DNA from: a virus
Direction: 5' to 3' (one strand)
DNA length: 64,000 bases
IMG/VR virus record: IMGVR_UViG_3300034760_000025
Location: 9,300 to 73,299 of that record
Position numbers and translations under genes: made by a program. A model generated the notes under the pieces. That model saw nothing but the letters and a program-made list of their open reading frames with translations, made no database searches and was not told where the DNA came from. Each line of letters begins with the position of its first letter. Position 1 is the first letter of the stretch. Shown here in pieces: positions 4,060-50,721 of the stretch.

Positions 4060-5553
4060 GCCTCATCGACATGGCCGCGGCGTGGCGCACCACCCGCGCG
4101 CAGTTCGCCCCCCGTGCCGGCCTGGCCCACACCCGGCGCGATGGCGATGGAACTCGACCTGACCACCGTGCAGACCCCGGCCCTGGAGCTGATCGACGCG
4201 GACCTCGCCGACGTCGCCGCCGGCCGCTGCAACCGCCTGATGATTTCCCTCGCACCGCAAGAGGGCAAAAGTGAGCGAACGTCGCGTCGGTTTCCGACGT
4301 GGATGCTGCACCGCAACCCGTCCCTGCGGATCGCGATCGTGTCCTACTCCCACAGCATGGCCCGCCGGTGGGGCCGGGAGATCCGCAACGACATCGTCGC
4401 GCACGCCCACCGGCTGAACATTGACGTCGACCCCGAAGCGGCGGTCGACGACTGGAAATTGAATGGGCACCGCGGCGGGGTCTACTGTACTGGAATCGGG
4501 GGTCCGCTCACTGGGCGTGCTGTCGATCTATTGATTATCGACGATCCCTATAAGGATTCAAAGCAATGCGATTCGTTCGCCTGGCGGGAGCGGGTTGAGG
4601 AATGGTGGACGAAAGTCGCCATTCCCCGACTCGGTAACCAGGTCGCCGCGGTCATCATCCAAACCCGGTGGCGTGACGACGACCTCACCGGGTGGCTACA
4701 GGAACGCGACAAGGCCGACGGCGTCAAACGGTGGCGGGTCATCAACATCCCCGCCCAGGCCGACCACGACCCAGCGAAAGGGCAGACGGACCCGCTGGGC
4801 CGCGAACCCGGCGAGTACCTCCTGTCAGCGCGCGGGCGGACCGTCGCCGACTGGGACGAACGCAAGCGGGAAGCCGGCTCACGGTCATGGCTGGCCCTGT
4901 TCCAAGGCCGCCCCTCCCCCGCCGGCGGGAACATCTTCAACGAAGAATGGTGGCAGTTCTACGAGGGCCCGCAGTGGTCGGTACGCGCCGACGGGGCGCA
5001 CATCCCGATCGGTTTCGACCAGGTCCTGATCTCCGTCGACTGCTCCTTCAAGGACACCGACAGCGCTGACTACGTCTGCCTGCAGGTCTGGGGCCGGCGA
5101 GGCGCCCAGGCGTACCTACTCGACCAGGTCCACGACCGCATGTCGTTCACGGCCACCCTGACCCGGTTCCGGGCCCTGTGCGGGAAGTGGCCCACCGTCA
5201 TCCTCAAGCTTGTCGAGGACAAGGCCAACGGCACCGCCGTGATCAACATGCTGCACCGGGAGATCGGCGGGATCGTCCCCGTCGAACCCGAAGGCGGGAA
5301 GGTCGAACGCGCCGCCGCCGTCAGCCCGTTCGTCGAGGCCGGCAACGTGTTCCTGCCCAACCCGAAACACGCCCCGTGGGTCGGCGCCCTCATCGAAGAG
5401 GCCAAGGCCTTCCCCAAGGCCCCGAACGACGACCGGGTCGACACCTTCAGCCAAGCCCTGAACCGGCTACTGCTGAACCCGCTGATCCTCGACGACACGA
5501 TCATCGAAGACGACGAGGACGGCGAACCCGAGGGATCAATCAGCCTCTGGTGA
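4056..5553 (+). CDS. terL: Terminase large subunit with an apparent +1 frameshift in the C6 run at 4108-4113 (intact frame 4114-5553)
   Basis: Walker A-like ISLAPQEGKS, Walker B LLIIDDPYKD, C-terminal nuclease with SVDCSFKD and PNDDRVD. Confidence 0.92.
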
Positions 5554-5573
5554 CCGGGAAGGGGGCGGCCCCG

Positions 5574-5795
5574 ATGCCCGACCTGGCAAACCCCGCCCCC
5601 GACTGCCCGACCCGGCCCGTCGAGCACGTCGACGGGTACGCCGTGCACCACCACATCCCCGACGATAGGGCCCCCCACGCCCGAACGTCCGAGTGCTGCT
5701 GCGGCCCCGACCTGCGCCAGTCACCAACCGTGCTGATCTACACCCACCGCGACCTACGCGGCGACGTCGGGCACCCGGAGGTGAGCGGACCATGA
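5574..5795 (+). CDS. Small His/Cys-rich hypothetical protein
   Basis: ATG 5574; HHH...H...CCCGP; ATGA overlap with the portal start. Confidence 0.55.
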   Translation: MPDLANPAPDCPTRPVEHVDGYAVHHHIPDDRAPHARTSECCCGPDLRQSPTVLIYTHRDLRGDVGHPEVSGP

Positions 5796-7909
5796 CGACC
5801 CCCACGAAGCGCCGCCGCCGGGGCACCCCCGGGCCCGCCCCCGCCTCCACCGCGACCGTCGAGGCCGAGCTGCGCCGCGAGTTGACCGTCACCACGAACA
5901 ACCTGGAGCTGCTCGCCGACCGCCTCAACCGCGCCGCCGGCGGGGAACTGGCCGAAGCCGGCGTCGCTGACCTCGAACGGCAGGTCACCGGCGACCCCGG
6001 GTGGCGGGTGTTCGCCGTCGTCCAGGAACGCGAGTTCTCCCCCGAAGGCATGATCCAGATGCGGGCCGTGTGCCGGCTCATGGCCATCGCCAACCCGCTG
6101 ATGAAACGCGGTCTCGACCTACGCGCCGTGTACGTCCACGGGCAGGGCTACGAGATCCGGGCGCGGGCCACCGGCCGGGCACCCGCCGAAGGTCAGGACG
6201 AGGAACAGGACGTCAACGCGGTCATCGACGCGTTCATCCGCGACCCCGCGAACCAGCGCTCCGTGTTCGGCCAGCAGGCCGCCACCGAACAGGAAAGGGC
6301 CCTGGGCACCGACGGCGAGGTCTTCGTCGCCCTGTTCACCCGCCCCCGCTCCGGATGGGTCCAAGCCCGCACGGTCGCCGCCGACGAGATCACCGAGGTC
6401 ATCTGCAACCCCGACGACAAGTCGGAGCCCTGGTTCTACCGCCGGGTGTGGCAACGCCACACGTACGGCAGCAACGGCGTCGCCACGCCCGAACGGCAGG
6501 AGATGCTGTACCCCGACGTCGACTACCGGCCGAAGGTCCGCCCGAGCACCTTCGCCGGGATCCGCGTCGACTGGCACGCCCCTGTCGTTCACACCGCCGT
6601 GAACCGGCCGCTGGGCTGGCTACGGGGCATCCCCGACGCGTACGCGGCGATCAACTGGGCCAGGGCGTACACCCAATTCCTGGAGCAGTGGGCGACGCTG
6701 ATGAAGTCGCTGGCCCGCTTCGCGTGGAAACTCACCGCCGAAGGCCGCAACCGCACCCAGGCCCGCGCCGCGATCGCCGCGGCGAACGCCACCGCGGCCA
6801 ACCCCCGAACCGCCGCCGGGGAAACCACCGACATCGGCGGGACCGCTATCACCCCGATCGGGGCGAACCTCGAGGCGATCCCGAAGACCGGCGCGACGAT
6901 CGACGCCGAGTCGGGCCGCCCCCTGGGCATGATGGTCGCCGCCGCCCTGGGCGTCCCCGTGACCATGCTCCTCGCCGACCCCGGCCAGACCGGCGCCCGG
7001 GCCACCGCCGAAACCCTCGACTGGCCAACCGAACTGATCATGAAGGACCGGCGGGAGATCGTCGGCTCCGCCCGGCTGCGGATCTGCCGCTACGTCATCA
7101 CCGAAAGCGTCCGCGCGCCTAAGGGCCGCCTCAAAGGGACCATCACCCGCGACGAGCACACCGACCGGGAAGTCGTCACCCTCACCGGCGACACCGACGA
7201 CACCATCGAAATCATCTGGCCGGACCTCGACGACGTCGAAGCCAAGGAAATCATCGACGGTGTCGTCGCCGCGAACGCCACCGGTGTCCTGCCCCCAGAG
7301 CTGGTGCTCCGGCACCTACTCACCGCGCTGGGTGTCCGCGACGTCGAATCGATCGTCGAAGAGATGGAAGACGACGACGGTAACTTCCAATGGCCGCAGA
7401 CCGCGCAGTCCGTCGGCCAGCAGGCCGCCGGCCTCGCGGCCACCGGCGGGGACCCCGCCGCCGCCGGCACCGGCCTGATGGGCCCCGACGGCGAACCCGC
7501 CGACCCGCCCACCGCCGGCGCACCAGGGGTGCCCGGGCAGACCGGCACCGCCCTGATCCCCACAGACGGGCCCCTCGCCCGGATGGCCGACGCCGACTTC
7601 GGCCTGTTCGGCGGCGGGAACACCCCCAACCCCGCCGCAGCGACCGTAGCGGCCGGCGAACAACCCGACAACGGGTTCGACGCCGACTTCTACGCGGTCA
7701 GCACCGGCGACACCCAGGAGACCAACGTGCCCGACGACGAACCGGCCCGCCGGGCCGCACCGACCACCGAAGCCGCCGGCCGGCAAGCCGACGCCGACTA
7801 CGGCCTAGGCCCAAGCCACCGCGAACACCGGGGACGCGTCCCCATCAAGCCCGAACCCGCCGGGGAACAGCCCGCCGGGGAGTACGACCCGGAGTTCTTC
7901 ACCATCTGA
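5792..7909 (+). CDS. Portal protein with a long acidic C-terminal extension
   Basis: Follows TerL; ALGTDGEVF, GIPDAYAAINW, AALGVPVTMLLADPGQTGARATAETLD resemble actinophage portals. Confidence 0.85.
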   Translation: MTTPTKRRRRGTPGPAPASTATVEAELRRELTVTTNNLELLADRLNRAAGGELAEAGVADLERQVTGDPGWRVFAVVQEREFSPEGMIQMRAVCRLMAIANPLMKRGLDLRAVYVHGQGYEIRARATGRAPAEGQDEEQDVNAVIDAFIRDPANQRSVFGQQAATEQERALGTDGEVFVALFTRPRSGWVQARTVAADEITEVICNPDDKSEPWFYRRVWQRHTYGSNGVATPERQEMLYPDVDYRPKVRPSTFAGIRVDWHAPVVHTAVNRPLGWLRGIPDAYAAINWARAYTQFLEQWATLMKSLARFAWKLTAEGRNRTQARAAIAAANATAANPRTAAGETTDIGGTAITPIGANLEAIPKTGATIDAESGRPLGMMVAAALGVPVTMLLADPGQTGARATAETLDWPTELIMKDRREIVGSARLRICRYVITESVRAPKGRLKGTITRDEHTDREVVTLTGDTDDTIEIIWPDLDDVEAKEIIDGVVAANATGVLPPELVLRHLLTALGVRDVESIVEEMEDDDGNFQWPQTAQSVGQQAAGLAATGGDPAAAGTGLMGPDGEPADPPTAGAPGVPGQTGTALIPTDGPLARMADADFGLFGGGNTPNPAAATVAAGEQPDNGFDADFYAVSTGDTQETNVPDDEPARRAAPTTEAAGRQADADYGLGPSHREHRGRVPIKPEPAGEQPAGEYDPEFFTI

Positions 7910-7965
7910 CCCAGCGACCAGTAGCGCGCCGCTCGCCGCGGCCCGACAGCAGAGGGGCGGCAGTA

Positions 7966-10900
7966 GTGGCACGCACGACGAAGTGGAACCCCGCGCACCA
8001 CCCGAGAGACGCCCGCGGCCGGTTCACCAAATCAGCGACCAGGGTCCTCAAGGCCGTCGACGCGAAGCGGGCCCGTGCCGCCGTCCAGGGTTTCAAGCCC
8101 GTCGACCTCGGGGCTGGTGCCGGTGCCGGCCGGGAATGGCTCGACAAGCAGACTCCCGCGAAGGCCACCGCCGGCGACGCTGTGGCCCGGTACTTCGCCG
8201 GCGAGTGGAAGACCATCAACGGGGACCTGCGGACCAAGAAGGACGCCGCGCAGACCCCCGACGTCGTCGCGATCGACAAGGCGATGACCGGGCTGACCGA
8301 CGACGTGATGCTCGAACGGCGTATCCCCCTGCGGATGTTCGCGCACATCCCGATGGATCAGCTCAAGGGGATGAAGGTCCGCGACGCCGCGTACGCCTCC
8401 ACGATGCTGCAGGGCGCCGCCGGGGACGCCCCCGACGGCATGGTCACCCTGCACATCGCCGCGCCGGCCGGCACCCGCGCCATCGTCAACCCCGGCGATG
8501 GTGAGGTGCTGCTGGACCGGGACACCGAGGTTGCGATCAGCCGTGTGGAGCCCGACGGGCGCGGCGGGTACGACCTGTACGGTGTCGCCATCTCGAAGGC
8601 CGGCGCTGTGCGGGCCGGTCGTCCCGCCGGCGACCCCGCCGACCAGGAAGGCGCCGAAGACCCCGACGCCACCGCCGACCCAGCCCCCGCCCCCGCCCCG
8701 GCGGCGGACGCCGACGACACGGACCCCGCGATCGCCGGCACCCCGCCGCGCAAGGCCGCGCCCAAGAAGGCGGCCCCAGCCGCCCGCCCGGCCGACGAGC
8801 CCGCCCAGGACGGCCCCGACCCGGCGGCTGGCACCCGTGCACCCTCCGCGCCCCGCAAGGCCGCCCAGGACGGCCAGGATGCCCGGCAGGCCGGCGAGGA
8901 TGACGACCTGATCGGCGCGGCCGCCGCCGCGGCGGCGCTCGAGGACGCCGGCGAACCCGTGCCGATCGAAGCCGCTGTCGCTGACCTGCAGCCCGGGGCG
9001 TACGCCCGCGTCACCGGCACCGACCAGTACGGGGCCCCGGCCAGCGCAACCGGCTACGTCGGCGCCGCCACCCCCGTCACCGTCCGGAAGAACCGCCGCA
9101 GCAAAGCCAAAGGCACCGACAAGTTGGCGGTCTACATGACCGAGACACCCAACGGTGCCAACGGGTGGCGCTACCAGATCCTGACCGACCCCGACGCGAC
9201 CGCTGAGATCGTTCCCGACCCGGCGAGTGTCCCGCCGACCCCCGCCGACCGCACCCCACCGGCGACCGTCGCTGACCTGCAGCGCGGCGACTACGTGTCG
9301 GTACGCGACGTCGACGGTGTCGAGCGGACCGGCTGGATCACCACCCCCGGCGACGTCCGCGACGGCAAGGTCGCTTTCGCCGTCACCGCGTACCCGGGCG
9401 GGAAGGGCTTCCGGGCGATGGTCTACGCCCGCCCCGATGACCCCGTCACCCCCCGCACCGTCGACCCGAACATGAACGTCGTGCTGTGGCGCGACGTCAA
9501 GACGAAGCGCCCGGCGCCGCGCGCCGACCAGCCCGAGATCGTCCGCGGGCAGGTGGAGCGGGACCCGCAGGCCGAGGCCGAGGTCCGCACCGCGCTGGCC
9601 GCCCTCGCCGCCGACCAGGGCCCGCCGACGCCGCTCGACGCCGACGAGCAACGCGCCGCGGTCGCCGGCCGCACGTTCGCCCGCACCGAAGGCATGACCG
9701 TCGCCGACGACGAGACCCGGTTCCGGATGCGTAAGGCCCGGGTCGGCGCCCGGATCGTCGACGTCCACAACGCCCAGGGTGTGAAGATCGGCACCGCGAC
9801 CCAGGGCCGCGACGGGTGGTCGCTCGTCGACGGCGACGGCAACGCCCAGGGCGACGCGCCCGCGTTCGCCAACGCGGTGGCGGTGCTCGACGACGTCGCC
9901 GCCAGCCCCGACACGCCCGACGACCGCGGCGGCGAGGTGTCGCCGCTGGGCGAGGATCTCGACGCCCCGCCGCCGGCGGCCGACCCGTTCTCCGCGGCCG
10001 CGACCAGCCCGTCGCGTAACGACTGGTTCGGGCACGGGTCGCCCGACGAGGTCCTGTGGTTCGGCAACGGGTCCGCACCGGGCCCGGCCGGTACCCGCGC
10101 CACGGTCCGGCGTAACGGCGGCCGCGGGAAGAACGCCGGCCTTGTCGTAAGGTCCACCGGCCCCGACGGGGAAATCCTCGCCCGCATCGCCATGGACGAC
10201 CAGGTGTGGCTCGCTGACGTCCCCGGGGCGTCTCCCGCACCCGGCCGGCGCGCCGACGGGACGTTCGAACCCGACGGCACCCCCGCCGACCAGGGCGCCC
10301 AGGACGGGCCCACCCCGGCACCGAAGCAGCTCGACGCGATGATGACCGCGCTGGTGTTCGGCGACGCCCGCCTCGCCCCCGGCCGGCAGATGCGCGCCCA
10401 GATGCTGCGCATGGGCTGGGCCGACGCCACCGGGAAACTCACCCCCGACGGGCACGCAGCCGCCCGGCGCACCGACCCGGCCCGGTACCGCGACCGGACC
10501 GCCGGCGGTGACGACCGTGGCCTACTGGACACCCCCGTCCGCCCGGCGGCGCCGACGGCTGGCACCCGTCCGCCCGCCGCCGGCGCCGCCGTGGCCGGCG
10601 ATGACCAGGACGGCATGACCGTCGTGCGGACCAAGTCCGGGTGGGCCGTCTCCGGCCGGCAGCCGTACTACCTGCACGACGCGAAGAGCAAAAAGGCCGC
10701 TCAGCAGTGGATCGACGACGCGATGGCGACCCGGCGGAAGTTGGCCGACGCGAAGCAGGCCAGCGCGGCCGCCGAACAGGCCCACCTCGACCGGCACGGC
10801 CTCGACCGCGTCGACGCCGGCGACCTCAAGCCCGCCGACGTCTACGTCTACCGGCTGGGCGGGCACACCCGCACCGTCACCCAGGTCGACACCCTGGACA

Positions 10901-13900
10901 GCGGCGCCGTCATGGTTCACGACCAGCCCGGCCCCGACGCCCAGGACGACCCGCTGCCTCACCTGCTGTTCACCCGCAGCGGCGGACCGACCGGCACCGC
11001 ACTACGGTTCCGCGACCCCGCCCGGGCCGATGCGTACCGCACCCACATGGCCGCCGAAGAGGCCGAAGCCCGGGCGGAGCTGGCCCGGCTCGACGCCGCT
11101 GACGAAGCCGCCCGGGTTACCCGGATCGCCGAAGTGCAGGCCCTGCAGGCCGCTCACACCCCGGCCGCGGTCGCCGCGGCCGCCGCGCATGACCCGGCGG
11201 AGTTCGACACCCTCGACCCGGCCGCGCCGATCGCCGTGGGCGACCTGGTGATGCTGCGCGCGTACAGCAAGGTCCGCACCGGTGTCGCCACCGAGGTCAC
11301 CGGCGGGCGGGTGCAGGCCATCGTCGCGAAACCCGGCGACGAGTACGCCGGGCTGTTCGCCGGTGCCGCCGGCGTCGACGTCCGGAAGATTGCCGACAGC
11401 GGCGAGATCACCAACCCCGCCGGCGACACCATCGGCTACGTCCAACGCCGCCGTAACGGCACGTGGGACGCCAACCAGGCCGGTCACACCGGCCGCCGCG
11501 TCAACCGGCCTACCCGCGCCGAAGCCGAGGCTGAGCTCCGCGCGCAGATGGCCGACGAAGACGCCCGGTACGCGGCGATGCGCGCCCGCAACGACCCGAC
11601 CGCAGGCACCAGCACGCCCGCGCCGGTGCCTGCGGTCGACGTCGACGACGTCCGCGTCGGTGACATGGTGCGGCTCGACGACGCCCCCGGCTGGGTAATC
11701 GTCACCCGCAAGACGCCGGCCGCCGGCACCCTACCGACGATGGTCCAAGTCCGACACGGCGACGACGACCACGAGTGGGTTGAGGACCCGGCCCGGGTCG
11801 TTGGCCACGAACGCCGCCCCGCCCAGGACGGCCCCGACCCGGCGGCTGGCACCCGTGCGCCCGCGGCCCCGCCCGCGCCGGCTGCCCCGGCGGTCGACCC
11901 GGCCCGGATCAACGTCGACGACCGGGTGCGGGTCGCCGGGCAGTGGGCCACCGTCACCGCGAAGGTCGGCGACCAGCTCCGGGTGCGGTTTCCCGGCGCC
12001 CGGCTCGCCCTGGTCGCCCCGGGCGACGTCCGCCAGCACGAGGCCCGCGCCGTCGAGCTGGACATGTTCGGCGGGTCCCGCACGTTCGCCGGCGACGACC
12101 GGGCCGCGATCGGCGTGGCCGCGCGCGGCACCGTGGGCCGTGACACCGGCGCCCTGGTGCAGCAGCTCGGGATGTTCGACGTGTCCGACCAGAAGCAGAT
12201 GGCCGGGCAGACCGCGCTACTCGACGCCCTGATGGAGATGCCGACCGCCCCGCCGCCCGTGTCGGTGCCGATCGCCGCGCCGGACGCCCCCGACGAGCCG
12301 ACCCGGGTGCCCGACGACCTCACCGGCTGGTCCGACGAGCAACTCTCCGGGCTGTTCTCGGAGCTGTCCGACGCCCCAGACGACCAGCTCGACGAGGCCG
12401 GGATGTCCCGGATCGTCGCCGAGTGGGAACGCCGCGAAGCGGAGATGACCGCGATCGTCAACGCGGTCCCCGACGACCTGGGAACCCTCGACGACGACCA
12501 GGTCGCGCGGGCGTACGCCGACGTCACCGCGACCGTCGGATCCCTACACCCCGACGTGGTCGCCCGCCTCGAGGCCGAGCTGGACCGGCGCGACGCGGCC
12601 CGGGTCGCCGCCGTGCACGACCTGCAGATCAAGCGGGACCTGCTGGCGACCAGCCCGACGTCGATGACCGACCAGGAGGTCGAGCAGGCCGCGCAGTGGG
12701 CCGCCGACCTGGGCGACGAGCAGGCCCTGGAACGGGTGTACGAGGAGTGGGGGCGGCGGGAAGACGCCGAACGGGCCCGCCTCGAACAGGCCGAAGCCGA
12801 ACGGGTCCACTCCGAAGAGGCCAGCGCGGTCGCCGCGACGGCCCTGATTCAGCGGGTCGCGGCGGAGCGGGCCGCGGAGAACGCGGCCGCGCAGGTCGCC
12901 GAGGCGGAACCCGGGTTCGACTTCCTGCAGCAGCTCATCAACCGGGTCGGGACCGGGCCCGACGTGGCGCGGGTCATCGGTGACGCCGACCGGGCCGACG
13001 ACGAGCGGATGGCCACGTTCCGGGAGCGGTCCGAGAAGGAAATGCCGGTCCTGGTGGACATGTTCCGCGACCAGTCCGACGCCGAACTGAATAGCACATT
13101 TGTTCGGAACTGGTTTTCGGGTGACCCGCGGACCAAAGAGCAGGCCCGGCTCGCGAAGACCGAACAGCAGCGCCGGGAAGCGGTCCGCCTCGCCGAGCAG
13201 GCCGACGCCGCCGCCCGCCGCGACCGACGCCGGCTGATCCACGCCGACGTGGCCGAACTGTCCGACACGGACCTGCAGAAGTTCCCCGCCCTGCTGGACG
13301 CCCTACCGGGAACAGCGGCCGACCGGCTACGCGAAGACCGGATCCCGCAGATCCGGGCGGAGGTAGCCGCCCGGCAGGCCCGGATGGACACCATGGCCGC
13401 CGAGCGGGCCGCCGGCCCCGCCGGCCCCGTGCGGCTGGAAAACCCGATGGAGGCGTACGGCACCACCGAACGGTGGATCGCCCAGGGCAGCAGCTCCCGG
13501 TATTACCGGGCGCAACTGCGGTGGGCGGAGGCGAAGGCCACCGTCTACGGCCTACCCGCCGGTGCGTCGGACAAGGACGTCAACGCCGCTGAGCGGACCG
13601 ACCCCCGGCCGATGCCGGACCGGGCCGCTCTGATCCTGGCGTGGTACCGGCACCTGGCCCAGTTCGACCAGGGAGCCGCCGGCGACCCCGACGAGTTCAT
13701 CCGCGGGTACGACGACACCCCGGACGTCGCGGACACGGTCACCCCGACCCGCCCGGCGAAGATCGTCAAGGCCGATGAGGTGTGGGCGGCCCTGCAACAG
13801 CAGGCCATCGCGGACCGTAACGCCGGCGACGAGTCCGGCGCCGACCGGTTCTACCGGGCGCTGGCCCGCACCTACCGCATCGCTTACGACGACAACCTCC

Positions 13901-14571
13901 GCGGTGTCGAACTACAGAAGTCGATCGCACCCCGCACCAGCGCCGCCCTGGGCGCGGACACCCGCACCCCCAAGGTGAGGGCGCTCAACTTCGTCGCCGA
14001 GTGGCGCCGCCTCGCCGCCGAGGACGGCGTCGACCTGACCGACACCGCCCGGTTCGGGCCACCCGACAAGGGCCACCCGAAAGCCACCGGCGGGCGGGCG
14101 CACTGGGCCGCCGCCGACCCCGACCAGGAGAAGACCATCGACGCCCTCGTCGCCCGGGGCCGCGACTGGATCGACGCGTACGCCGAAGTCATGGGCTACG
14201 ACGTCGACACGCTGCGCCGGGAGGAGGCCGCATCGGCCGCCCGGGCGAACAGCACCACCCGCCGCGGTGCGTCGGAAGCCGCGATACGGCAGCACTACGA
14301 CGAGCTGGTCCTCGCCCAGTGGCAGGAAGCCGAGACCGCGACACGCGGGAACCTGCTCACCAAGCAGGCCCAGGCCCGCGGTGTCGACGCCCGCAGACTG
14401 TTCTCCGGGCCGGCGGCAACAGCCCTCGCGAACGCCAGCGAGGAACTGAAACGGTGGTGGGGCGAAAACCCCCGGCTGACGTACGCGCAGTACAAAGCCC
14501 AGCTCACCGGCGGGGCGAAACAGGCCCGGGACAAAGCCCTGGCCGGTAGTAAGGGGAACGAGTTCGCATGA
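7966..14571 (+). CDS. Giant (~2,200 aa) multidomain virion-type protein with an N-terminal VIP2/Alt-like ADP-ribosyltransferase domain
   Basis: GTG 7966; WNPAHHPRDARGRF leader; Y..INGDLR, LERR, YAST, PAG, DGEVLL at about 8190-8590; C-terminal ASEELKRWW domain. Confidence 0.8.
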   Translation: MARTTKWNPAHHPRDARGRFTKSATRVLKAVDAKRARAAVQGFKPVDLGAGAGAGREWLDKQTPAKATAGDAVARYFAGEWKTINGDLRTKKDAAQTPDVVAIDKAMTGLTDDVMLERRIPLRMFAHIPMDQLKGMKVRDAAYASTMLQGAAGDAPDGMVTLHIAAPAGTRAIVNPGDGEVLLDRDTEVAISRVEPDGRGGYDLYGVAISKAGAVRAGRPAGDPADQEGAEDPDATADPAPAPAPAADADDTDPAIAGTPPRKAAPKKAAPAARPADEPAQDGPDPAAGTRAPSAPRKAAQDGQDARQAGEDDDLIGAAAAAAALEDAGEPVPIEAAVADLQPGAYARVTGTDQYGAPASATGYVGAATPVTVRKNRRSKAKGTDKLAVYMTETPNGANGWRYQILTDPDATAEIVPDPASVPPTPADRTPPATVADLQRGDYVSVRDVDGVERTGWITTPGDVRDGKVAFAVTAYPGGKGFRAMVYARPDDPVTPRTVDPNMNVVLWRDVKTKRPAPRADQPEIVRGQVERDPQAEAEVRTALAALAADQGPPTPLDADEQRAAVAGRTFARTEGMTVADDETRFRMRKARVGARIVDVHNAQGVKIGTATQGRDGWSLVDGDGNAQGDAPAFANAVAVLDDVAASPDTPDDRGGEVSPLGEDLDAPPPAADPFSAAATSPSRNDWFGHGSPDEVLWFGNGSAPGPAGTRATVRRNGGRGKNAGLVVRSTGPDGEILARIAMDDQVWLADVPGASPAPGRRADGTFEPDGTPADQGAQDGPTPAPKQLDAMMTALVFGDARLAPGRQMRAQMLRMGWADATGKLTPDGHAAARRTDPARYRDRTAGGDDRGLLDTPVRPAAPTAGTRPPAAGAAVAGDDQDGMTVVRTKSGWAVSGRQPYYLHDAKSKKAAQQWIDDAMATRRKLADAKQASAAAEQAHLDRHGLDRVDAGDLKPADVYVYRLGGHTRTVTQVDTLDSGAVMVHDQPGPDAQDDPLPHLLFTRSGGPTGTALRFRDPARADAYRTHMAAEEAEARAELARLDAADEAARVTRIAEVQALQAAHTPAAVAAAAAHDPAEFDTLDPAAPIAVGDLVMLRAYSKVRTGVATEVTGGRVQAIVAKPGDEYAGLFAGAAGVDVRKIADSGEITNPAGDTIGYVQRRRNGTWDANQAGHTGRRVNRPTRAEAEAELRAQMADEDARYAAMRARNDPTAGTSTPAPVPAVDVDDVRVGDMVRLDDAPGWVIVTRKTPAAGTLPTMVQVRHGDDDHEWVEDPARVVGHERRPAQDGPDPAAGTRAPAAPPAPAAPAVDPARINVDDRVRVAGQWATVTAKVGDQLRVRFPGARLALVAPGDVRQHEARAVELDMFGGSRTFAGDDRAAIGVAARGTVGRDTGALVQQLGMFDVSDQKQMAGQTALLDALMEMPTAPPPVSVPIAAPDAPDEPTRVPDDLTGWSDEQLSGLFSELSDAPDDQLDEAGMSRIVAEWERREAEMTAIVNAVPDDLGTLDDDQVARAYADVTATVGSLHPDVVARLEAELDRRDAARVAAVHDLQIKRDLLATSPTSMTDQEVEQAAQWAADLGDEQALERVYEEWGRREDAERARLEQAEAERVHSEEASAVAATALIQRVAAERAAENAAAQVAEAEPGFDFLQQLINRVGTGPDVARVIGDADRADDERMATFRERSEKEMPVLVDMFRDQSDAELNSTFVRNWFSGDPRTKEQARLAKTEQQRREAVRLAEQADAAARRDRRRLIHADVAELSDTDLQKFPALLDALPGTAADRLREDRIPQIRAEVAARQARMDTMAAERAAGPAGPVRLENPMEAYGTTERWIAQGSSSRYYRAQLRWAEAKATVYGLPAGASDKDVNAAERTDPRPMPDRAALILAWYRHLAQFDQGAAGDPDEFIRGYDDTPDVADTVTPTRPAKIVKADEVWAALQQQAIADRNAGDESGADRFYRALARTYRIAYDDNLRGVELQKSIAPRTSAALGADTRTPKVRALNFVAEWRRLAAEDGVDLTDTARFGPPDKGHPKATGGRAHWAAADPDQEKTIDALVARGRDWIDAYAEVMGYDVDTLRREEAASAARANSTTRRGASEAAIRQHYDELVLAQWQEAETATRGNLLTKQAQARGVDARRLFSGPAATALANASEELKRWWGENPRLTYAQYKAQLTGGAKQARDKALAGSKGNEFA
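8800..8840 (+). repeat. 41-bp exact direct repeat, copy 1 (AQDGPDPAAGTRA)
   Basis: Identical to 11818-11858. Confidence 0.9.
11818..11858 (+). repeat. 41-bp exact direct repeat, copy 2
   Basis: Identical to 8800-8840. Confidence 0.9.
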
Positions 14572-15283: not shown

Positions 15284-16372
15284 GTGATCACCTCCCGAAC
15301 CCTGTGGTTGCTGCGGGAACTACGCGCGGCCATCGGCAGCGAAACCGACCAGGTCGTCCGGCAGCTCGCCGGCGCATGGGTCACCGCGTGGGCCACCCTC
15401 GACACCGTGTGGCAGCACGCCGTCGCCGACATCCTCGACGACATGGCCAGCACCGGCCAGTGGCCGGCCCCGTACCGGCTGGCCCGGTTGCACCGGCTCG
15501 CCGCGGCGGCCACGCAGACCCGGGCCGCGCTCGACGCCCTCGCCGCCCAGACCGCGACCGCGGCGACAACCGGCGCCGGGAACATCGTCGCCGCGACCGC
15601 CGCCGCCGAACCGGCCATCATGGCCTCCCAACTCCCCGCCGCCGTCGCCGCAGCCGCTATCGAGGGGTACGCCGCGGCGGTCGCACCGTCCGCCCTCGAA
15701 GCGATCGTTCTACGCGCGCAGCAGCAGATCCACGCGGTGACGTGGCCGCTGTCCGCCGACGCGATCGAGTCGCTACGCCGGGCCCTGATCGCCGGCGTCG
15801 CCACCGGAATGCACCCCCGAGACACCGCCCGGGCCATGCTCCGCAACGTCCAAGGGGCATTCAACGGCGGACTCACCCGGGCCATCAACCTGGCCCGGAC
15901 CGAGATGCTCGACGCGTACCGCGACACCAGCGCCCAGGTCCACCAGGCCAACGCCGACGTCGTCGACTGCTGGGTGTGGATTTCAGATCTTGGCACTAGG
16001 TGTTGTGCATCATGTTGGTCGATGCATGGCACTGAACACCCCGTCGAAACCCCCGGCCCCCTAGATCACCAGTCGGGTCGATGCAGTCGCATGGCCAAGC
16101 TGAAAAGCTGGGCTGAGCTGGGCATCCCCGGGATGGAGTCCGACGAAGACCTCATCCCGAAGGCTGCCGACCGGTTCGCCGCCCTCAGCCCGGCGGACAA
16201 ACGGCGGGTCATGGGCCCACGCCGGCTGGCGCTGCTCACCAGCGGCCGCGTTGACCTGGCCGACCTCGCCATGCGCCGCACCACGATCGGATGGCGCCCG
16301 TCGTACGTCCCCCGACCCGTCGGGCAACTCGAACAGATCGCCGCCCGCCGCCGACGAGACACCACCACGTAA
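15284..16372 (+). CDS. MuF-like minor head protein
   Basis: RAINLARTEMLDAYR, WVW...RCCASCWSMHG...DHQSGRC, C-terminal GPRR motif. Confidence 0.88.
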   Translation: MITSRTLWLLRELRAAIGSETDQVVRQLAGAWVTAWATLDTVWQHAVADILDDMASTGQWPAPYRLARLHRLAAAATQTRAALDALAAQTATAATTGAGNIVAATAAAEPAIMASQLPAAVAAAAIEGYAAAVAPSALEAIVLRAQQQIHAVTWPLSADAIESLRRALIAGVATGMHPRDTARAMLRNVQGAFNGGLTRAINLARTEMLDAYRDTSAQVHQANADVVDCWVWISDLGTRCCASCWSMHGTEHPVETPGPLDHQSGRCSRMAKLKSWAELGIPGMESDEDLIPKAADRFAALSPADKRRVMGPRRLALLTSGRVDLADLAMRRTTIGWRPSYVPRPVGQLEQIAARRRRDTTT

Positions 16373-23635: not shown

Positions 23636-24832
23636 ATGACAAGCACCCTGTTCGCCCCGGTCGTCGAGACCCTCGACGCCTCCCAGGCCGGCACCCCGGC
23701 CCTGTTCGGCTCCGACGGCATGGCCAAGAAGGCCAGCTTCGCGGCCGGCATGATGCACCCCCGGATCGGCGGCGACCCCCGCAAGTACAAGATGGCGATG
23801 TACGAGGCCGAAGAGCTCGTCGGCGACGTCATCGCCGGCCGCCGGCCGATCTGGCGTTTCACCGAGGCCATGACCACGGACCTGTTCCCCCTCGTCCACG
23901 CCGACAGCCTCGACCGGCAGATGTACGGCGCCTACTCCGCTGCGCCGGTGTCGTGGTCGCGGTACGCCCGCCGGGGCAAGGTCAACGACTTCCGGGAGGT
24001 GAAGCGGTTCGCGAACACGGGCATCCGCGGCCTGCTGAAGATCGTTCCGGAGCTGGCCGAGCATGAGCGGCGCACTACCGAGGAAGCCGTCTACAAGTAC
24101 TCGGTCAACAAGTACGAGGCCGGTTTCGGCATGTCGTTCGAGCTGATGGTCAACGACGATCTGGACCAATTTGCGCGGCTGCCGCAGGACCTGGCGCAGT
24201 CTGCGATCGACACCGAAGAGAACTTTGTGGCCACGCTCATCGCGGGCCCGTCCGGCCCGAACGCCACGTACTACAACCTCGCCAACGACAACGTGGCGAC
24301 GTCGAACGCGCCGCTGACCCGGGGCAGCCTCCAGGACGCGCTCACCCGCCTCTTGAAGCGCAAGGATGAGCGGGGCAACCCGATCACCGTGTCCGCGGTG
24401 GAGCTGGTCGTCGCGCCCGGTCTGATGATGACCGCCAACGAGATCATCGGTGCGACGCAGTACCGGATCGTGGGCGACAACGGCAACGTCACGATCATCT
24501 CCGGGAACGGCGTCGCGGTGAACCTCACCCTGTCGGTCAACTACCAGATCGGGGCGGTGGCGACCACCGCGAACGCTGACACGTCATGGTGGTTGTTCGC
24601 CAACCCGGGCAGCGCCCGGCCGGCCCTCGAGGTGGGTTTCCTGCGCGGCTACGAGCAGCCCGCCCTGTACGAGAAGATCCCGGACATGCGCCGGTTCGGC
24701 GGCGGCGCCGAGGTCGCGTGGTCCTTCGAGCACGGCGACGCCCACAAGAAGGTCCAGCACGTGCTGGGCGGGTCGTTCGTCGACGCGAAGATGACGATCG
24801 CCAGCCGAGGGGACGGGTCCACCGTCTCCTGA
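23636..24832 (+). CDS. Major capsid protein (Mu gpT-like)
   Basis: EAMTTDLFP, VNDFREVKR, YSVNKYE..FGMSFELMVNDDL, LEVGFLRG; ATG 23636. Confidence 0.88.
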   Translation: MTSTLFAPVVETLDASQAGTPALFGSDGMAKKASFAAGMMHPRIGGDPRKYKMAMYEAEELVGDVIAGRRPIWRFTEAMTTDLFPLVHADSLDRQMYGAYSAAPVSWSRYARRGKVNDFREVKRFANTGIRGLLKIVPELAEHERRTTEEAVYKYSVNKYEAGFGMSFELMVNDDLDQFARLPQDLAQSAIDTEENFVATLIAGPSGPNATYYNLANDNVATSNAPLTRGSLQDALTRLLKRKDERGNPITVSAVELVVAPGLMMTANEIIGATQYRIVGDNGNVTIISGNGVAVNLTLSVNYQIGAVATTANADTSWWLFANPGSARPALEVGFLRGYEQPALYEKIPDMRRFGGGAEVAWSFEHGDAHKKVQHVLGGSFVDAKMTIASRGDGSTVS

Positions 24833-36719: not shown

Positions 36720-37103
36720 GTGGTGACTGTGTGGTTCGACGGCGTTGACGAGATGAACACGGTGCGCCGGGAGATGCGGGCCGCTACGGGCCGGGTCGGC
36801 GCCCTTGGTGCGGCGGTCGTCCGGAAGAGCGGCCTGCAGGTCGAGGCGACCGCGAAGCTGTTCTCCCCGGTCGACACCGGCCACCTCAAAGCGACCATCG
36901 GCGCCCGGTTCGAGGGCGACGGCCGGCACGGGGAGATGGAAGCGGTCATCTCGGCGACCGCTGAATACGCGCGGTATCAGGAATTTGGCACCAGCAGGCA
37001 GGCCCCTCAGGCATTCATGGGCCCGGCGCTCGACCGGGTCGCCCCGGGGTTCGTGGCGGCCTGCGAAGCGCTGGGCGGCATTATCGGCGGCGGTTCGGGC
37101 TGA
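36720..37103 (+). CDS. HK97 gp10-like neck protein
   Basis: AKLFSPVDTGHLK...AEYARYQEFGT...PQAFMGPA. Confidence 0.85.
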   Translation: MVTVWFDGVDEMNTVRREMRAATGRVGALGAAVVRKSGLQVEATAKLFSPVDTGHLKATIGARFEGDGRHGEMEAVISATAEYARYQEFGTSRQAPQAFMGPALDRVAPGFVAACEALGGIIGGGSG

Positions 37104-37109: not shown

Positions 37110-37934
37110 CTACAACAGGGCGGTGGCCAGCCGCCGATGCCACGTCGGCCGGTTGAAGGCCCACGCGGGCAACTCGACCAGGGGCAGGCCGTACTCCTCG
37201 TAGAGGCGGGTCTTGCGCTGGCGGCGTGCGGTGTAGGTCGACGAGTTGAGCACGCCCCACACCTCGATGTAGGTGCCTCCGACGAGGAAGTCAGCGCGGT
37301 ACCGGCGGTCGAAGGGCAGCGGAGGCTCGACCTCGTGAGCGAGGCTCTGGGAGGTCAGCCAGTCGTCGACGCGGCGCTCGTAGTCTGACCTGGCTTGGTG
37401 GCCGTCGGTGCATGTCCACCGGCGGCCGCCCGCCCAGCCGCCGGGCCGCACCTCGATGCCGTGTTCGCGGCACAGCTCGCCGATTAGCGAAGCGCTCACG
37501 CCGTGTCGTTTGGCGATCCGCGTCAACGACGCGCCGCCGTCGTACGCGGCTTGGAGCTGTTCGGGTGTCGGTAGGACGACTTCGCGGCCGCGGCGGCGGG
37601 TGCCCCAAACGGTGGGCGCGGTGATGTCGTGCCGGTTCAACCAGGCCGGTACGGCGGTGTGGTCGACGCCGTACCGGCCGGCGATCGCCCGGTAACTGAG
37701 GTGTTCGTCGTGCACCATCCGCTGCAGGTCGGCCCTGGTCGGTGGGTCGATGCCGCGGTTCGCCAGCCCGCGGTCGGCGCTGCGCCGTGGGATCCCGTGC
37801 GCGGCAAGCCATCTGCGGATGGTGATGTGCCGCACGCCAAAGCGGCGGCCGATATCCCTGGTGGTCATGCGCTGGTCGATGTAGAGAGCGCGCAAAGCGG
37901 CTGCGTCCGGCCTGTTGGGTGTCACTGGTGCCAT
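37110..37934 (-). CDS. Free-standing triple-HTH plus PD-(D/E)xK-type endonuclease
   Basis: Three HTH repeats, then RSDYERRVDDWL...EP...ADFLV...IEVWG...RK..Y; TAGGAT -10-like box 7 nt before the ATG. Confidence 0.72.
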   Translation of the reverse strand: MAPVTPNRPDAAALRALYIDQRMTTRDIGRRFGVRHITIRRWLAAHGIPRRSADRGLANRGIDPPTRADLQRMVHDEHLSYRAIAGRYGVDHTAVPAWLNRHDITAPTVWGTRRRGREVVLPTPEQLQAAYDGGASLTRIAKRHGVSASLIGELCREHGIEVRPGGWAGGRRWTCTDGHQARSDYERRVDDWLTSQSLAHEVEPPLPFDRRYRADFLVGGTYIEVWGVLNSSTYTARRQRKTRLYEEYGLPLVELPAWAFNRPTWHRRLATALL

Positions 37935-37983
37935 GAGGTCAATCCTATGTCTAGTGCGGAACATGCCGCAGTTGGGGGGCGGC

Positions 37984-40587: not shown

Positions 40588-40603
40588 GAAGGGCGGGCCG
40601 GGT

Positions 40604-46836: not shown

Positions 46837-46867
46837 AACCGATCAGGAGAATGGGGGGTGAATAGCG

Positions 46868-47830
46868 GTGGCATACGATTCGTTTCCGAATAACGCGCAC
46901 AATAACCGCGCGATTTCGCTGGCCGAGCAAGAACAACTGTTGGCCCCGCACGGGTTCTCCGGCCTGATCGGGTTCACCGGGGTCACACCGGTGTACGCGA
47001 ACAGCACCGGGCTACACGCCAAGCTACGGGCCGGAGTCGCCGCCGCGGTGCGCGGCACCCGGTTCAACAACGCCACGGAGACGATCGTGGCGTTGGGGGC
47101 GAACACGTCCGGGTCACCGCGGATCGACCTGATCGTGCTGCGGCTGAACCGGGCCGCGACCGCCCCGAACGCGTTCACGGTCACCCCGGTTGTCGTCGCC
47201 GGGACACCGGCGGCGGTGCCGCTGGCACCGCAACCGGTGCGTAACAACACCCTCGACGGCACGGGCGTGTGGGACATCCCGGTCGCTGAGGCTGACGTGC
47301 CGCACGGGGCGGCGAGTATCCCGTCGACGGCGGTCCGGAACCGGGCGTGGTGGCTCACCGGCAGCGGTTACACCGGGTTCGACGCGGTCAGGCCGCCCGT
47401 CGAGCCGGGTGTGTTCTTCCGGGCCAACGATTCGGGGGTCACGTACGTCGGGACGTCCGGCGGGACGTGGCAGCGGGTGTACTACAACACCGGGTGGTCG
47501 TCGCTGCCGATCCCCGCCGGTGCGGGCTGGTCGGGGCAGGCTTTCCACTTCAACCGGTGCGGCGACCTGGTCGTGATGAACGCCCGGCTGATCCGGACGG
47601 GGGCGACGATGCCGGCGACGGCGTCGGCGGTTTTCGGGACCCTGTCTGACATTTTCCGGCCGACGATGGCGATGTCGGGGACGTACCACTGCACCCTGCC
47701 GGACCACTCCGGGCACGTCGGTGTCAGCACCGGCGGCACCATCACATTCGTCGGTACGAACACCACGGCCCAGAACATTCAGAACGGCGCGACGCTGATA
47801 TCCAACATGGTTTGGCCGGCCGCGGCCTAA
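46868..47830 (+). CDS. Minor tail protein
   Basis: AYDSFP, N.SG.PRIDLIVLRL, WDIPVA, C-terminal beta domain. Confidence 0.75.
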   Translation: MAYDSFPNNAHNNRAISLAEQEQLLAPHGFSGLIGFTGVTPVYANSTGLHAKLRAGVAAAVRGTRFNNATETIVALGANTSGSPRIDLIVLRLNRAATAPNAFTVTPVVVAGTPAAVPLAPQPVRNNTLDGTGVWDIPVAEADVPHGAASIPSTAVRNRAWWLTGSGYTGFDAVRPPVEPGVFFRANDSGVTYVGTSGGTWQRVYYNTGWSSLPIPAGAGWSGQAFHFNRCGDLVVMNARLIRTGATMPATASAVFGTLSDIFRPTMAMSGTYHCTLPDHSGHVGVSTGGTITFVGTNTTAQNIQNGATLISNMVWPAAA

Positions 47831-47846
47831 TAGGGGGCAGACAGAC

Positions 47847-49013
47847 ATGGGACAACGGCACCCTTTTGGTGGCGGCGTAGCCGAGTGGGTCATGGAAGGC
47901 AACGATTCCGATGTGCCCATCCTGCAGGGCGGCGCGAGCCTGACGTTCTGGAACGCGAAGGACGGCGGGCTGCAGCACACCGACCTGTCGCTCGACGCGG
48001 CCGGGGAAACACCCCTGACGGGGCTACTCAGCAGCGACGGAACCGGCGGGTACCGCAAAGGGCAGGTCCCGAGCTTTTTCGGCCCGCCTGACGTCACGTA
48101 CATGTGGATGTCCGCCGATGGTGGTGAGCGGGTCCTGATCGTCGCCGTTGACACGGCTGACATCGCCGGGGCGATCGCCCAGCAGTTCTCCAACCACCTC
48201 AGTCAGAGCAACGGGCACAACACCACCATGGGCGACCTGTCCGATGTGGATTTTCCCGCGACGATCCCACCCGGGTCGGTGCCGGTGTGGAACGACACAG
48301 AGCAGAAGTGGGAGGCGGCGACCGCGACGGGGCTCAACCCGAACTCGTTCGTGAAGACCGCAGGCGGGAGCGTCGTTCGGATCCCCGACGGGGACACCAC
48401 CACCGTCGGGCAGGAGGTACGCGCCCCGGCGGGAAGCCGGGTCGGCGCGGCGAACACCTTCCAGGGGGCATGGAACAGCGGCAGCAACGCGGTCCCGGTG
48501 TGGGCGTTGGGTTTCTACCTCAACGGGTACGCCGAGGGCAGGGCCCGGGCCACCGCCGACGACCGGGTCGCGTTCCGCGTCGAGCGGCGCACCGCCGGCG
48601 CCACCGGTGACCTTTTCCAGGCCGTGAACGAGTCCGGCAACCCCCTGGCGTGGATCAACTCGAAGGGGCATATCCGGGCGGCGAACCTGGGCCGGTCGGT
48701 CACGTTCACCGCCGTCGGGGCGCTGAGCACGGGCGTCGGCAAATTTGTTTGGTTCAACGACACCGGTGCGGATCTGATCCTGCGGTCGTTGCGGTTCTGG
48801 CTGGACACGGTCGGTAGCACGCCGAGTGTGTTCGACGTCAATCGTGACGGGGTGACGCTGTACGCGTCGGGTAAGCCGACCCTGGCCGCGAGCGCGCAGA
48901 CGTTACTCGTCGCGGCTTCGTTCACTGTCGCCGCCGGGCAGCGGCTGTCCGTTGACGTCGACAGCGCGGGCACCGGCGCGCAGAACCTCACCGCCCAGCT
49001 AGAGCTGTACTGA
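47847..49013 (+). CDS. Minor tail / fibre protein
   Basis: TFWNAKDGG.Q.TDL, PSFFGP; VPVWN..QKW motif. Confidence 0.72.
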   Translation: MGQRHPFGGGVAEWVMEGNDSDVPILQGGASLTFWNAKDGGLQHTDLSLDAAGETPLTGLLSSDGTGGYRKGQVPSFFGPPDVTYMWMSADGGERVLIVAVDTADIAGAIAQQFSNHLSQSNGHNTTMGDLSDVDFPATIPPGSVPVWNDTEQKWEAATATGLNPNSFVKTAGGSVVRIPDGDTTTVGQEVRAPAGSRVGAANTFQGAWNSGSNAVPVWALGFYLNGYAEGRARATADDRVAFRVERRTAGATGDLFQAVNESGNPLAWINSKGHIRAANLGRSVTFTAVGALSTGVGKFVWFNDTGADLILRSLRFWLDTVGSTPSVFDVNRDGVTLYASGKPTLAASAQTLLVAASFTVAAGQRLSVDVDSAGTGAQNLTAQLELY

Positions 49014-49032
49014 CCCGGACGGAGGCACCACC

Positions 49033-50721
49033 GTGGGCTCATGGGTCAACGACAGCAGTTCGGTCACCACCACCTCGGGTTTCACCTCCGTCGGGACCAT
49101 CCCGACCGGGGTAGCCGCCGGGGACCGGGTGTACGCGTTCGTCGGCAGTGGGTCCGCGAACCCGAACGCGCTCACCGGGCCGGCCGGGTGGGTGAAGTGC
49201 GCCGAGTACGCCCCGACCGGGTTTTTCAAGTCGGCGCTGTACTACCGCGACGTCGCCGCCGGTGGGGAGGCCGGGGCCACGGTCACGTGGACGTGGGCGG
49301 TCACCGGGCGCACCTGGGCGGTTCTGCAGGCGTACCGGGGTGTGGAGACAGCCCGGGCGCCGTTGTGGGCGACGGCGTCCGGGGTCGCGGACAGTCCGGG
49401 GCCTACGAACGTGCCCGTGCTGACCGTGCCTACGGATGACTGGCTGCTGATCCTCGCCGCGGCGCGGGAGTCGCCGGGCACCGACCTGGCGAAGACGTGG
49501 GCGCTGACCGGCGCCGGGACCGACGTCGAGCGGGTCGACGAGTACGGCAACAACGCGGGGACCGGGGTGAAGCTGACCGTCGCGGTGTACGACACCAACG
49601 GCCCCGACCCGGGTGTCGCCGGTGGTGGTGGCGGCGGGGGTGGCAGCGCGGTGACGTTGACGGGGGCACCGCCGCTGAACACGTACAACTCGATCGCGTT
49701 GACGTCGCCGCTGCGGATCGGGGCGACGCTCGACAAGGCGGCGATCTCCTACTGGGAGCCGAAGCTGCACGTCAACGGGTGGATGCGGATCTTCCCGGAT
49801 GGCTCGACGAAGATGCCGAACGACTGGGAGGACTCCCGCTACCAGTATTGCCGGCGGGTCGGTGCGCACCCGTTCATCAGCACGAAAATCGACGGCGATC
49901 CGGTGAAGTTGCAGCAGATGTACGACTACCTGATGACGATGCCGTCGTGGATCAAAGACGACCCGGACATGCTGTTGTGGATGACCGACCACCACGAACC
50001 GGAAAAAGAATTCACCCCAACAGGGTTCAAAAACAACTTTATTGCGTTCTGGAATAAGATAAACACGCTGCCGTCGAACATTCGCACGAAAATCAAATGC
50101 GGTCCGGCGCAGACGTCGCAATGGACGGAGTCGGCCAGTAAAGGCAACTTCAACTATTCGACGTACGACCCGCTGGTCGGTGACTTCTGGGGTGTCGACA
50201 CGTACGTCCTGAGCGCGTCCGGTGGGGCGGCGATCACGTCGTACCCGAACCCGGTCGCCTTCCTGCAGCACATCAAGGCGTACGTCCCGCCCGGCGGGCG
50301 GCCGAAGATTTTCCCGGAGTTCGGGGCGATCGGCGCCCCGTTCGACACCGACGGGACAGCCCGGGCCGCGTTCCTGCAGGGCTGCTACAACGAGCTGATC
50401 ACCTGGCCGGACTTCGGCGGGTTCATCTGGTGGAACGACGACGGGACGTCGTCCGACTCGCCGACGACCGGGATCGGCACCGCCCGGTACTTCCAGCTCA
50501 ACCGCCGGCACACCGGCACCGACAACTCCTACACGGAGATCCCGTCGCAGACGACGACGGTGACCGTCGGCAGCGGCGGCGGGTCCGGGACCGCCCGGTC
50601 CGTGACCCTGTCCCAACCCGCCGCGAGCACGCACCTGTGGTCCGTGACGGTGCCCATGGTCGCCCCTCCCCCGCCGGCGCCGGTCAACCCCTGGTCGCAC
50701 ATGGGCCGCCCCCAGAAGTAG
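49033..50721 (+). CDS. Tail-associated protein with a GH26-like catalytic domain inserted in a beta domain
   Basis: HPFISTK, TDHHEPE, FWGVDTY, IFPEFG, FIWWND. Confidence 0.65.
   Translation: MGSWVNDSSSVTTTSGFTSVGTIPTGVAAGDRVYAFVGSGSANPNALTGPAGWVKCAEYAPTGFFKSALYYRDVAAGGEAGATVTWTWAVTGRTWAVLQAYRGVETARAPLWATASGVADSPGPTNVPVLTVPTDDWLLILAAARESPGTDLAKTWALTGAGTDVERVDEYGNNAGTGVKLTVAVYDTNGPDPGVAGGGGGGGGSAVTLTGAPPLNTYNSIALTSPLRIGATLDKAAISYWEPKLHVNGWMRIFPDGSTKMPNDWEDSRYQYCRRVGAHPFISTKIDGDPVKLQQMYDYLMTMPSWIKDDPDMLLWMTDHHEPEKEFTPTGFKNNFIAFWNKINTLPSNIRTKIKCGPAQTSQWTESASKGNFNYSTYDPLVGDFWGVDTYVLSASGGAAITSYPNPVAFLQHIKAYVPPGGRPKIFPEFGAIGAPFDTDGTARAAFLQGCYNELITWPDFGGFIWWNDDGTSSDSPTTGIGTARYFQLNRRHTGTDNSYTEIPSQTTTVTVGSGGGSGTARSVTLSQPAASTHLWSVTVPMVAPPPPAPVNPWSHMGRPQK

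Follow-up and report, generated by a model that had tools for sequence, protein, structure and literature searches.

The P-loop, Walker B and C-motif are the main positions of inteins in the large terminase (TerL) genes of phages, and the endonucleases of mycobacteriophage TerL inteins cut, specifically, the intein-less TerL of partner phages (PMC5050341). The latest survey of actinophage inteins described minor-capsid inteins with non-canonical, antisense-encoded endonucleases (bioRxiv 10.1101/2025.01.02.630785). Work on inteins and homing endonucleases mostly takes the invader's point of view, and resistance of uninvaded phages at the target site was raised in that survey only as speculation and future work. 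Here we analyzed a window of 64,000 nt (the whole stretch of DNA studied, whose numbering is used below), bases 9300-73299 of the 89.7-kb IMG/VR virus record IMGVR_UViG_3300034760_000025. Its genes for TerL and for a MuF-like minor head protein are free of inteins and carry short patches of A/T-ending codons at points where homologues carry inteins. We concluded from sequence comparison that the strong patches probably mark intein-free alleles in which synonymous change has diversified the target sites of homing endonucleases. The patches themselves, the intein sites, the endonuclease open reading frames (ORFs), the coincidence of patch and site and its recurrence across both protein families are direct observations.

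The phage genome has a GC content of 71%, and ~88% of its codons end in G or C. A first-pass annotation of the window had listed abrupt shifts to A/T-ending codons at motifs of core genes, and its counts are all exact: 13/20 codons are A/T-ending at 15980-16039 of the MuF gene, 13/25 at 4501-4575 of TerL and 7/20 in gp10. Recounting also gave 7/17 for TerL 4252-4300 and 6/28 for the capsid gene. Synonymous codons were then shuffled within amino-acid classes inside each gene and the strongest 20-codon window was scored. Clustering was strong in MuF (best window 13/20, P < 0.002), TerL (11/20, P = 0.006) and the gene at 49033-50721 (10/20, P < 0.002); it was weak in the gene at 27865-30561 (P = 0.07). 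The patches in gp10 (P = 0.12) and in the capsid gene at 24150-24230 (not significant in this shuffling) are weak. In a scan of the whole 89.7-kb record, cleaned of wrong-frame and wrong-start artefacts, the MuF patch on the CxxC motif ranked first (13 A/T-ending codons observed vs 1.9 expected) and the TerL Walker B patch ranked third (11 vs 1.8).

Assembly error as the source of the patches was ruled out with Logan contigs from three runs of three studies (soil and biocrust), one of which, X1, may be the source sample. Both TerL patches and MuF are represented in X1, MuF also in X3 and the 13085 patch in X2, all with zero differences from the record at the patches; the worry that the patches might coincide with low-quality assembly was thus unfounded. 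The only discrepancy is a pair of G residues missing behind position 4113 in the record compared with X1 and X2, an indel that truncates the TerL ORF at its N-terminus. Restoring GG extends the gene upstream to an ATG near 4056, after which the N-terminus resembles those of homologues, and the true start probably lies there. Other local explanations were also rejected. A/T-ending codons are not commoner in A/T-rich amino-acid contexts, where the trend is opposite, and the patches are unique in the genome, which excludes repeats. Internal promoters or terminators offer no general explanation, with no such site in MuF and a single antisense promoter-like one within the patch at Walker B. That site, at 4534-4561 on the minus strand, is a sigma-70-like match (TTGAAT, 16-nt spacing, GATAAT; 9/12) and is probably a by-product of A/T-richness.

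Intein junctions were mapped by BLASTP on homologues, and the 10 codons on either side of each site were tested against genome-wide, amino-acid-specific expectations (Poisson-binomial). The TerL protein (479 amino acids) is collinear with intein-free homologues and has no Hint/intein domain; no Hint/intein splicing domain was found in any of the window proteins scanned. The gene and the intein sites of its homologues, projected onto it, are as follows.

4114-5553, plus strand: TerL (large terminase) gene, intein-free, with Pfam Terminase_6N and Terminase_6C.
4240-4299, plus strand: site A patch on Walker A, at the GK/S junction (residues 52/53, nt 4269/4270); 8/19 A/T-ending codons vs 2.3 expected, P = 7e-4.
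4462-4602, plus strand: site B patch on Walker B; 19/47 codons A/T-ending.
4633-4692, plus strand: site C, before the TRW C-motif (residues 183/184, nt 4662/4663); no patch in the window (3/19, P = 0.26).

Inteins at site A were located in P0016, P0037, P0038, P0051, P0094, G005 and L036 (our labels for homologues and genomes). They occur in 5 of the 120 nearest TerL homologues (812-829 amino acids), in G005 and in a Dactylosporangium prophage, and they carry LAGLIDADG_3 and Hom_end domains. The site B junction (..GRxxD/(C)LIIDDP, residues 138/139, nt 4527/4528) lies directly before the LIIDDP strand, and 10/20 codons within 10 codons of it are A/T-ending vs 1.9 expected (P = 3e-6). Site B inteins were found in ten representatives of clusters at 50% identity, e.g., P0297 and P0310, and site C is defined by 11 junctions from 11 representatives, e.g., P0289 and P0297; one more TerL intein at ~186/189 was entered as 187 in the tests. 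The inteins of L248 hold out-of-frame nuclease ORFs: an HNH ORF at site B (L248:1175-2143, plus strand) and an Endonuclease_7 ORF at site C (L248:2514-2975, plus strand, E = 8e-20). Another relative with an intein-bearing TerL, L195 (IMGVR_UViG_3300043357_000064, 88,991 bp), is heavily colonised by mobile nucleases; inside and beside its head module are two IS605 OrfB/Cas12f-like TnpB genes, a Y1 transposase, an HNH gene and an Endonuclease_7 gene. Separately, the DNA of the TerL nuclease domain (window 4731-5484) had a sole match in the phage collection, the terminase gene of Microcystis phage MinS1 (73% DNA identity over 754 nt); MinS1 also has a MuF relative.

The MuF protein (362 amino acids) is likewise collinear with intein-free homologues and without a Hint/intein domain. 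An intein in MuF was first seen in the contig of L196, the closest TerL relative, and ~27 intein-bearing MuF proteins were found. The gene and its sites are the following.

15284-16372, plus strand: MuF/SPP1 gp7-like minor head protein gene, intein-free; its Phage_Mu_F match (E = 1.5e-4) is below the curated cut-off, and homologues carry PF04233.
15974-16033, plus strand: site 2 patch on the CxxC motif (residues 240/241, nt 16003/16004); 12/17 A/T-ending codons vs 1.7 expected, P = 2e-9.
16046-16105, plus strand: site 1 patch at ..HQx/(C/G)RC (residues 264/265, nt 16075/16076); 7/19 A/T-ending codons vs 2.2 expected, P = 0.004.

Site 2 inteins, present in three MuF proteins (P0268, P0280 and P0283), are inserted immediately before the CxxC motif, and their junction is the middle of the 13/20 patch counted above. 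Across residues 230-252 the window has 13/19 A/T-ending codons vs 0-6 of 19-20 in twelve relatives. At site 1, ~24 homologues carry an intein of ~335 amino acids. Antisense ORFs of ~325 amino acids span MuF inteins in L224 (10844-11821, minus strand) and L223 (10889-11872, minus strand); both have weak REase_MTES_1575 (PD-(D/E)xK-type) matches, and the L224 ORF has helix-turn-helix (HTH) domains. In both TerL and MuF the motif residues are unchanged, so the proposal that these patches alter the DNA while the protein is kept was borne out.

Significant A/T-ending excess was thus found in the window at four of the five mapped intein sites (P from 0.004 to 2e-9). Pooling sites A, 2 and 1 gave 27/55 A/T-ending codons vs 94/739 elsewhere in both genes (Fisher 6e-10), and random placement of sites reached this pooled excess with P = 0.002. 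The same tendency was detected in both families with an amino-acid-controlled excess measured on 84 distinct TerL homologues of high GC3 (G + C at third codon positions) and 70 high-GC MuF homologues from IMG/VR. In the TerL family the excess has its global maximum at site B (1.48-fold, residue 135) and another peak at site C (1.31-fold, residue 180), with values of 0.67-0.8 in the nuclease domain. Among the 20 TerL homologues with a patch of at least 8/20, the strongest patch falls on an intein site in 12, vs 15% expected (P = 5e-6). The MuF family shows a 1.2-1.3-fold plateau over residues 235-285, and 8/18 of its strongest patches are on an intein site vs 13% expected (P = 0.001). Individual MuF homologues repeat the pattern: L254 has 14/20 A/T-ending codons at site 1 with Arg as AGA/AGG, and L303 and L269 use AGA/AGG for invariant arginines or TGT for cysteines at their patches. 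Codon entropy at conserved columns is modestly raised near the sites (P = 0.02 and 0.047), and TerL S53, the +1 residue of site A, is the most codon-diverse conserved column. A second A/T-ending cluster was observed at N-terminal MuF residues ~71-127 (window numbering) in L260, L278, L302, L304, L307, L312 and L328, away from known intein sites and with no such patch in the window; it could be another homing site or an effect of Ala/Thr-rich composition.

Clusters of this kind could in principle arise by chance, with attention drawn selectively to recognisable motifs; several of the listed patches are weak or off motifs, and this high-GC genome has other A/T-rich islands that are unexplained. 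The permutation and Poisson-binomial tests, the genome-wide ranks of 1 and 3 and the independent family-level enrichment all run contrary to such an account, and we regard it as highly improbable.

The earlier proposal that the patches lie on the most conserved motifs of core genes applies to TerL and MuF and fails as a generalisation. A/T-ending codons are not linked to conservation overall, since their per-codon frequency is 0.097 at residues identical to G001 vs 0.095 at non-identical ones. Within TerL the patches occur at the ATPase motifs only, and the equally conserved nuclease domain shows an A/T-ending deficit. Outside these two genes, 13085-13120 falls in an unconserved stretch of a giant protein, and 29430-29530 lies outside residues 794-898, the sole conserved part of its gene (in a homologue search for gene 27865-30561 only that C-terminal part found relatives). 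The stretch at 50010-50160 is in the gene at 49033-50721, for which the same search detected no homologues, and 46840-46930 is a gene boundary, with a stop codon, the gap behind it and the start of the next gene; none of the four is on a conserved motif as had been suggested. Half of the patches listed have no tie to conserved motifs. Their GC12 (G + C at codon positions 1 and 2) is 0.32-0.47, i.e., they are A/T-rich at these positions also, whereas the TerL and MuF patches have a GC12 of 0.55-0.60, near the gene averages. They are therefore of a different kind, and so there are two patch classes: those of TerL and MuF, which are mainly synonymous, and islands of general A/T-richness within accessory and tail genes. 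We concluded that the organising variable, as read from these comparisons, is the set of intein insertion sites and not protein conservation.

The islands can be described further. Intragenic ones were seen at 26215-27374, 29433-29544, 49972-50113 and ~66580-66760 (the last in window numbering, past the window end). They occupy beta-helix, tail and low-complexity genes, with GC down to 0.33 over 60 nt; all codon positions are affected and the sequences are unique in the genome. Their density is ~2 per 10 kb in G000 vs 0.2-1.1 in relatives. The giant ORF that holds 13085-13120 encodes ~2,390 amino acids (window 7390-14571) between portal and MuF, with a weak ADPrib_exo_Tox match near its N-terminus and matches to head morphogenesis/maturation protease PHROGs at its C-terminus. 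Relatives have proteins of 1,842-2,700 amino acids in the same position, with a GP88-like gene before them.

Conserved segments might also be recoded for a reason internal to translation, namely rare-codon clusters that slow the ribosome at the ATPase and zinc-motif segments and aid co-translational folding. The patch codons are indeed rare in the genome, and several lineages show enrichment around Walker B. What recurs is the region and not the codon positions: the window and L196 share 7 A/T-ending positions, where ~5.5 were estimated by chance. Many homologues, among them G001-G004 and the intein-bearing alleles, have no patch, other conserved TerL motifs are in deficit, and the intein-site pattern appears in two unrelated proteins. 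Translational pausing is therefore an improbable cause. The same comparison gave a mixed answer to the question of whether homologues simply share the A/T-ending codons: G001-G004 are without them, and the closer L196 and L193 have a Walker B patch mostly at other codon positions.

We next consider the direction of change. When intein-free alleles were ranked by divergence from intein-bearing flanks, the window was rank 3/55 at site B, 1/11 at site 2 and 1/10 at site 1. The extein is the host protein around the intein, and the extein flanks of intein-bearing alleles are mostly G/C-ending (A/T-ending codons: L223 1/19, L224 2/20, L196 2/19 at site 2; L248 similar). The first-pass annotation had suggested patch recombination, supported by an encoded single-strand annealing protein (SSAP). 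The SSAP gene was confirmed:

63541-63999, plus strand: SSAP gene, phrog_3290 match, E = 2e-29; cut by the window end.

The recombination itself lacked a donor. A low-GC donor was rejected because a blastn search with the patches in 50,697 phage records gave only chance-level or flanking matches, and the intein-bearing flanks, being G/C-ending, are no source either. The patch amino acids are the consensus of the closest clade; together with the missing donor, this indicates that the patches formed in situ, without import from a low-GC relative.

The patches could alternatively be a non-adaptive by-product of homing, left by error-prone repair of repeated breaks or as co-converted flanks after intein loss. 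This account would fit the position of the patches on intein sites, and in-frame A/T-ending frequencies are 0.31-0.39 in inteins vs 0.09-0.16 in exteins; at site A, GCA, CAA and CGT are common to the window and the flanks of the intein-bearing L193. The low in-frame GC3 of inteins is, however, explained by the endonuclease ORFs that overlap them, antisense or out of frame, and the window patches, at 50-70% A/T-ending, exceed the inteins' own level. In addition, the flanks next to resident inteins in L223, L224, L196 and L248 are mostly G/C-ending, and precise loss of inteins is rare. We consider the by-product account unlikely, and each of the four rival explanations weighed in this work was judged less likely than diversification of targets at intein sites.

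Diversification of intein-site targets may be pictured as follows. Inteins of relatives sit at fixed points in TerL and MuF, and each brings an endonuclease gene whose product would cut the conserved motif in TerL or MuF copies free of the intein. Repair of this break would then draw on the intein-bearing copy, or the break would be lethal if the genomes are too diverged to recombine. Synonymous changes would then accumulate around four of the five sites, without altering the residues of Walker A, Walker B and CxxC, until the recoded allele no longer resembles the G/C-ending consensus to which recognition by the endonucleases is adapted. Many silent changes would be needed for escape because homing endonucleases tolerate single wobble changes (PMC3943268). 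A synonymous departure from the consensus appears as A/T-ending since most codons here are already G/C-ending and a two-fold degenerate codon has no alternative but an A/T-ending one; the other available moves are codon-family switches such as AGG (Arg), TTG (Leu) and TCA (Ser), all of which are present in the patches. As the patches sit on the intein sites of relatives, the DNA most likely changed, with the protein kept, to avoid cutting and invasion. We infer selection for resistance to cleavage or invasion as the cause, in which case the recoded sites would be uncuttable.

Homing endonucleases had been named earlier as one of two possible drivers, and they fit closely, since relatives have endonuclease-bearing inteins where the window is recoded. 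The other, escape from CRISPR (clustered regularly interspaced short palindromic repeats) spacers, or more broadly from spacers or restriction systems that target conserved phage DNA, receives little credence from us. Silent DNA change with the protein kept is what any sequence-directed defence selects. Known CRISPR escape is usually a single change in the protospacer adjacent motif or seed, or a deletion, unlike the at least 10 silent changes over 60 nt seen here, and such a defence gives no reason for centring on intein points in two genes and across families.

In sum, an endonuclease-bearing element is found at the sites in homologues, it is absent from the window allele, and divergence is concentrated at the site with the motif kept. 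Several observations weigh against this reading. At site A the divergence is contrary, as the window (rank 46/50) is among the alleles most similar to intein-bearing ones; together with the A/T-ending codons common to it and L193, this may indicate shared ancestry or co-conversion, and the site is ambiguous. Site C is unpatched in the window. At sites B and C the inteins were found in representatives at 40-51% identity, with no site B intein seen among the closest TerL homologues (at least 60% identity), and at least five TerL sites make some chance overlap likely. For the strong patches at 29470, 50002 and 13078 there is no known connection to inteins. The excess in codon entropy is modest, the family-wide tests ignore kinship among homologues, and the intein sites were sought after the patches had been seen, though they were located from independent data.

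More broadly, A/T-ending synonymous patches in high-GC phage genes might be a general, sequence-readable footprint of homing-endonuclease pressure, an extension that we put forward tentatively and would not yet bet on. If it is true, patches would mark the position and rough extent of endonuclease targets and allow prediction of homing sites not known so far, and they would record an ongoing arms race between inteins and the packaging and head-assembly genes; the gp10 patch, and perhaps those at 29470 and 50002, could be such sites. Inter-phage competition through intein endonucleases would then shape the silent sites of the most conserved phage genes. High-GC viral genomes would offer a cheap sequence signal for homing sites, and local GC3 dips should be read with caution before they are attributed to horizontal transfer or assembly error. 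The window and the family statistics provide a concrete testable case, with five mapped sites of which four are recoded and with natural alleles that look susceptible or resistant.

Besides the genes discussed, the window encodes portal, capsid and gp10 proteins, as well as tail and beta-helix proteins, a lysin and methyltransferases; a tRNA scan of the window found no tRNA genes. The early region has two DNA methyltransferases (D12 N6-adenine and N6_N4 type) and an HD-domain protein at 54381-55256 (minus strand), 59843-60496 (plus strand) and 61766-62551 (plus strand). Its relatives, with TerL identity of up to 73%, are found among soil phages and prophages, in Micromonosporaceae as well as other actinomycetes. 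Two further features concern gp10.

36960-37019, plus strand: weak patch in gp10 (tail completion/Neck1); 7/20 A/T-ending codons, gene-wise P as given above.
37110-37964, minus strand: antisense gene with three HTH domains (Pfam HTH_23 and HTH_38), a candidate free-standing homing endonuclease.

In relatives, 1-2 of 26 codons are A/T-ending in the corresponding part of gp10. The antisense gene, ~100 nt from the patch, is an insertion relative to G001, where gp10 and the next tail gene are direct neighbours; in the window it separates the two. The antisense gene matches phrog_8446 'HNH endonuclease' (E = 3e-22) via its HTH part, and the C-terminal 120 amino acids of its product gave lead-level atlas matches to DUF559/Vsr-like clusters (0.83-0.87), with a DF..IEV motif. 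BLASTP of the HTH protein against the antisense intein ORFs gave no significant match. The layout is what might be expected, on this thin evidence, of a free-standing homing endonuclease with a protected target nearby.

In marker exclusion (intronless homing) of T-even phages, a free-standing endonuclease cuts a conserved gene of a co-infecting relative, and the phage that carries the endonuclease is spared because its own allele differs in sequence close to the endonuclease gene. The arrangement of gp10 and the antisense HTH gene at 36960-37964 matches this layout; it differs in that the nuclease is a candidate and the gp10 patch is weak. The Torulaspora WHO elements and their target FBA1 present a comparable case, in which the target site in an essential gene diversifies to evade cleavage; some synonymous changes there confer resistance, and cleavage assays were done (bioRxiv 10.64898/2026.08.13.744650). 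That system is eukaryotic, not intein-based and largely non-synonymous, whereas the changes reported here are mainly synonymous, in phage structural genes, and deduced from sequence. Engineered homing gene drives likewise select function-keeping alleles without the nuclease recognition sequence (PMC6176634); they are engineered and act in animals, in contrast to the natural phage-intein setting of this locus. For phage inteins, the literature that we searched gave no description of target-site evolution against homing endonucleases. A close match is intein homing in actinobacteriophages (Kelley et al., 2016, PMC5050341; Gosselin et al., bioRxiv 10.1101/2025.01.02.630785), which involves the same host genes, the same or equivalent insertion motifs (the P-loop GK/S/T, Walker B and C-motif, plus the minor capsid gene) and overlapping endonuclease types (LAGLIDADG, HNH, out-of-frame EndoVII and antisense ORFs). 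Both papers deal with the inteins themselves; the window presents an intein-free allele with a synonymous footprint at the empty sites.

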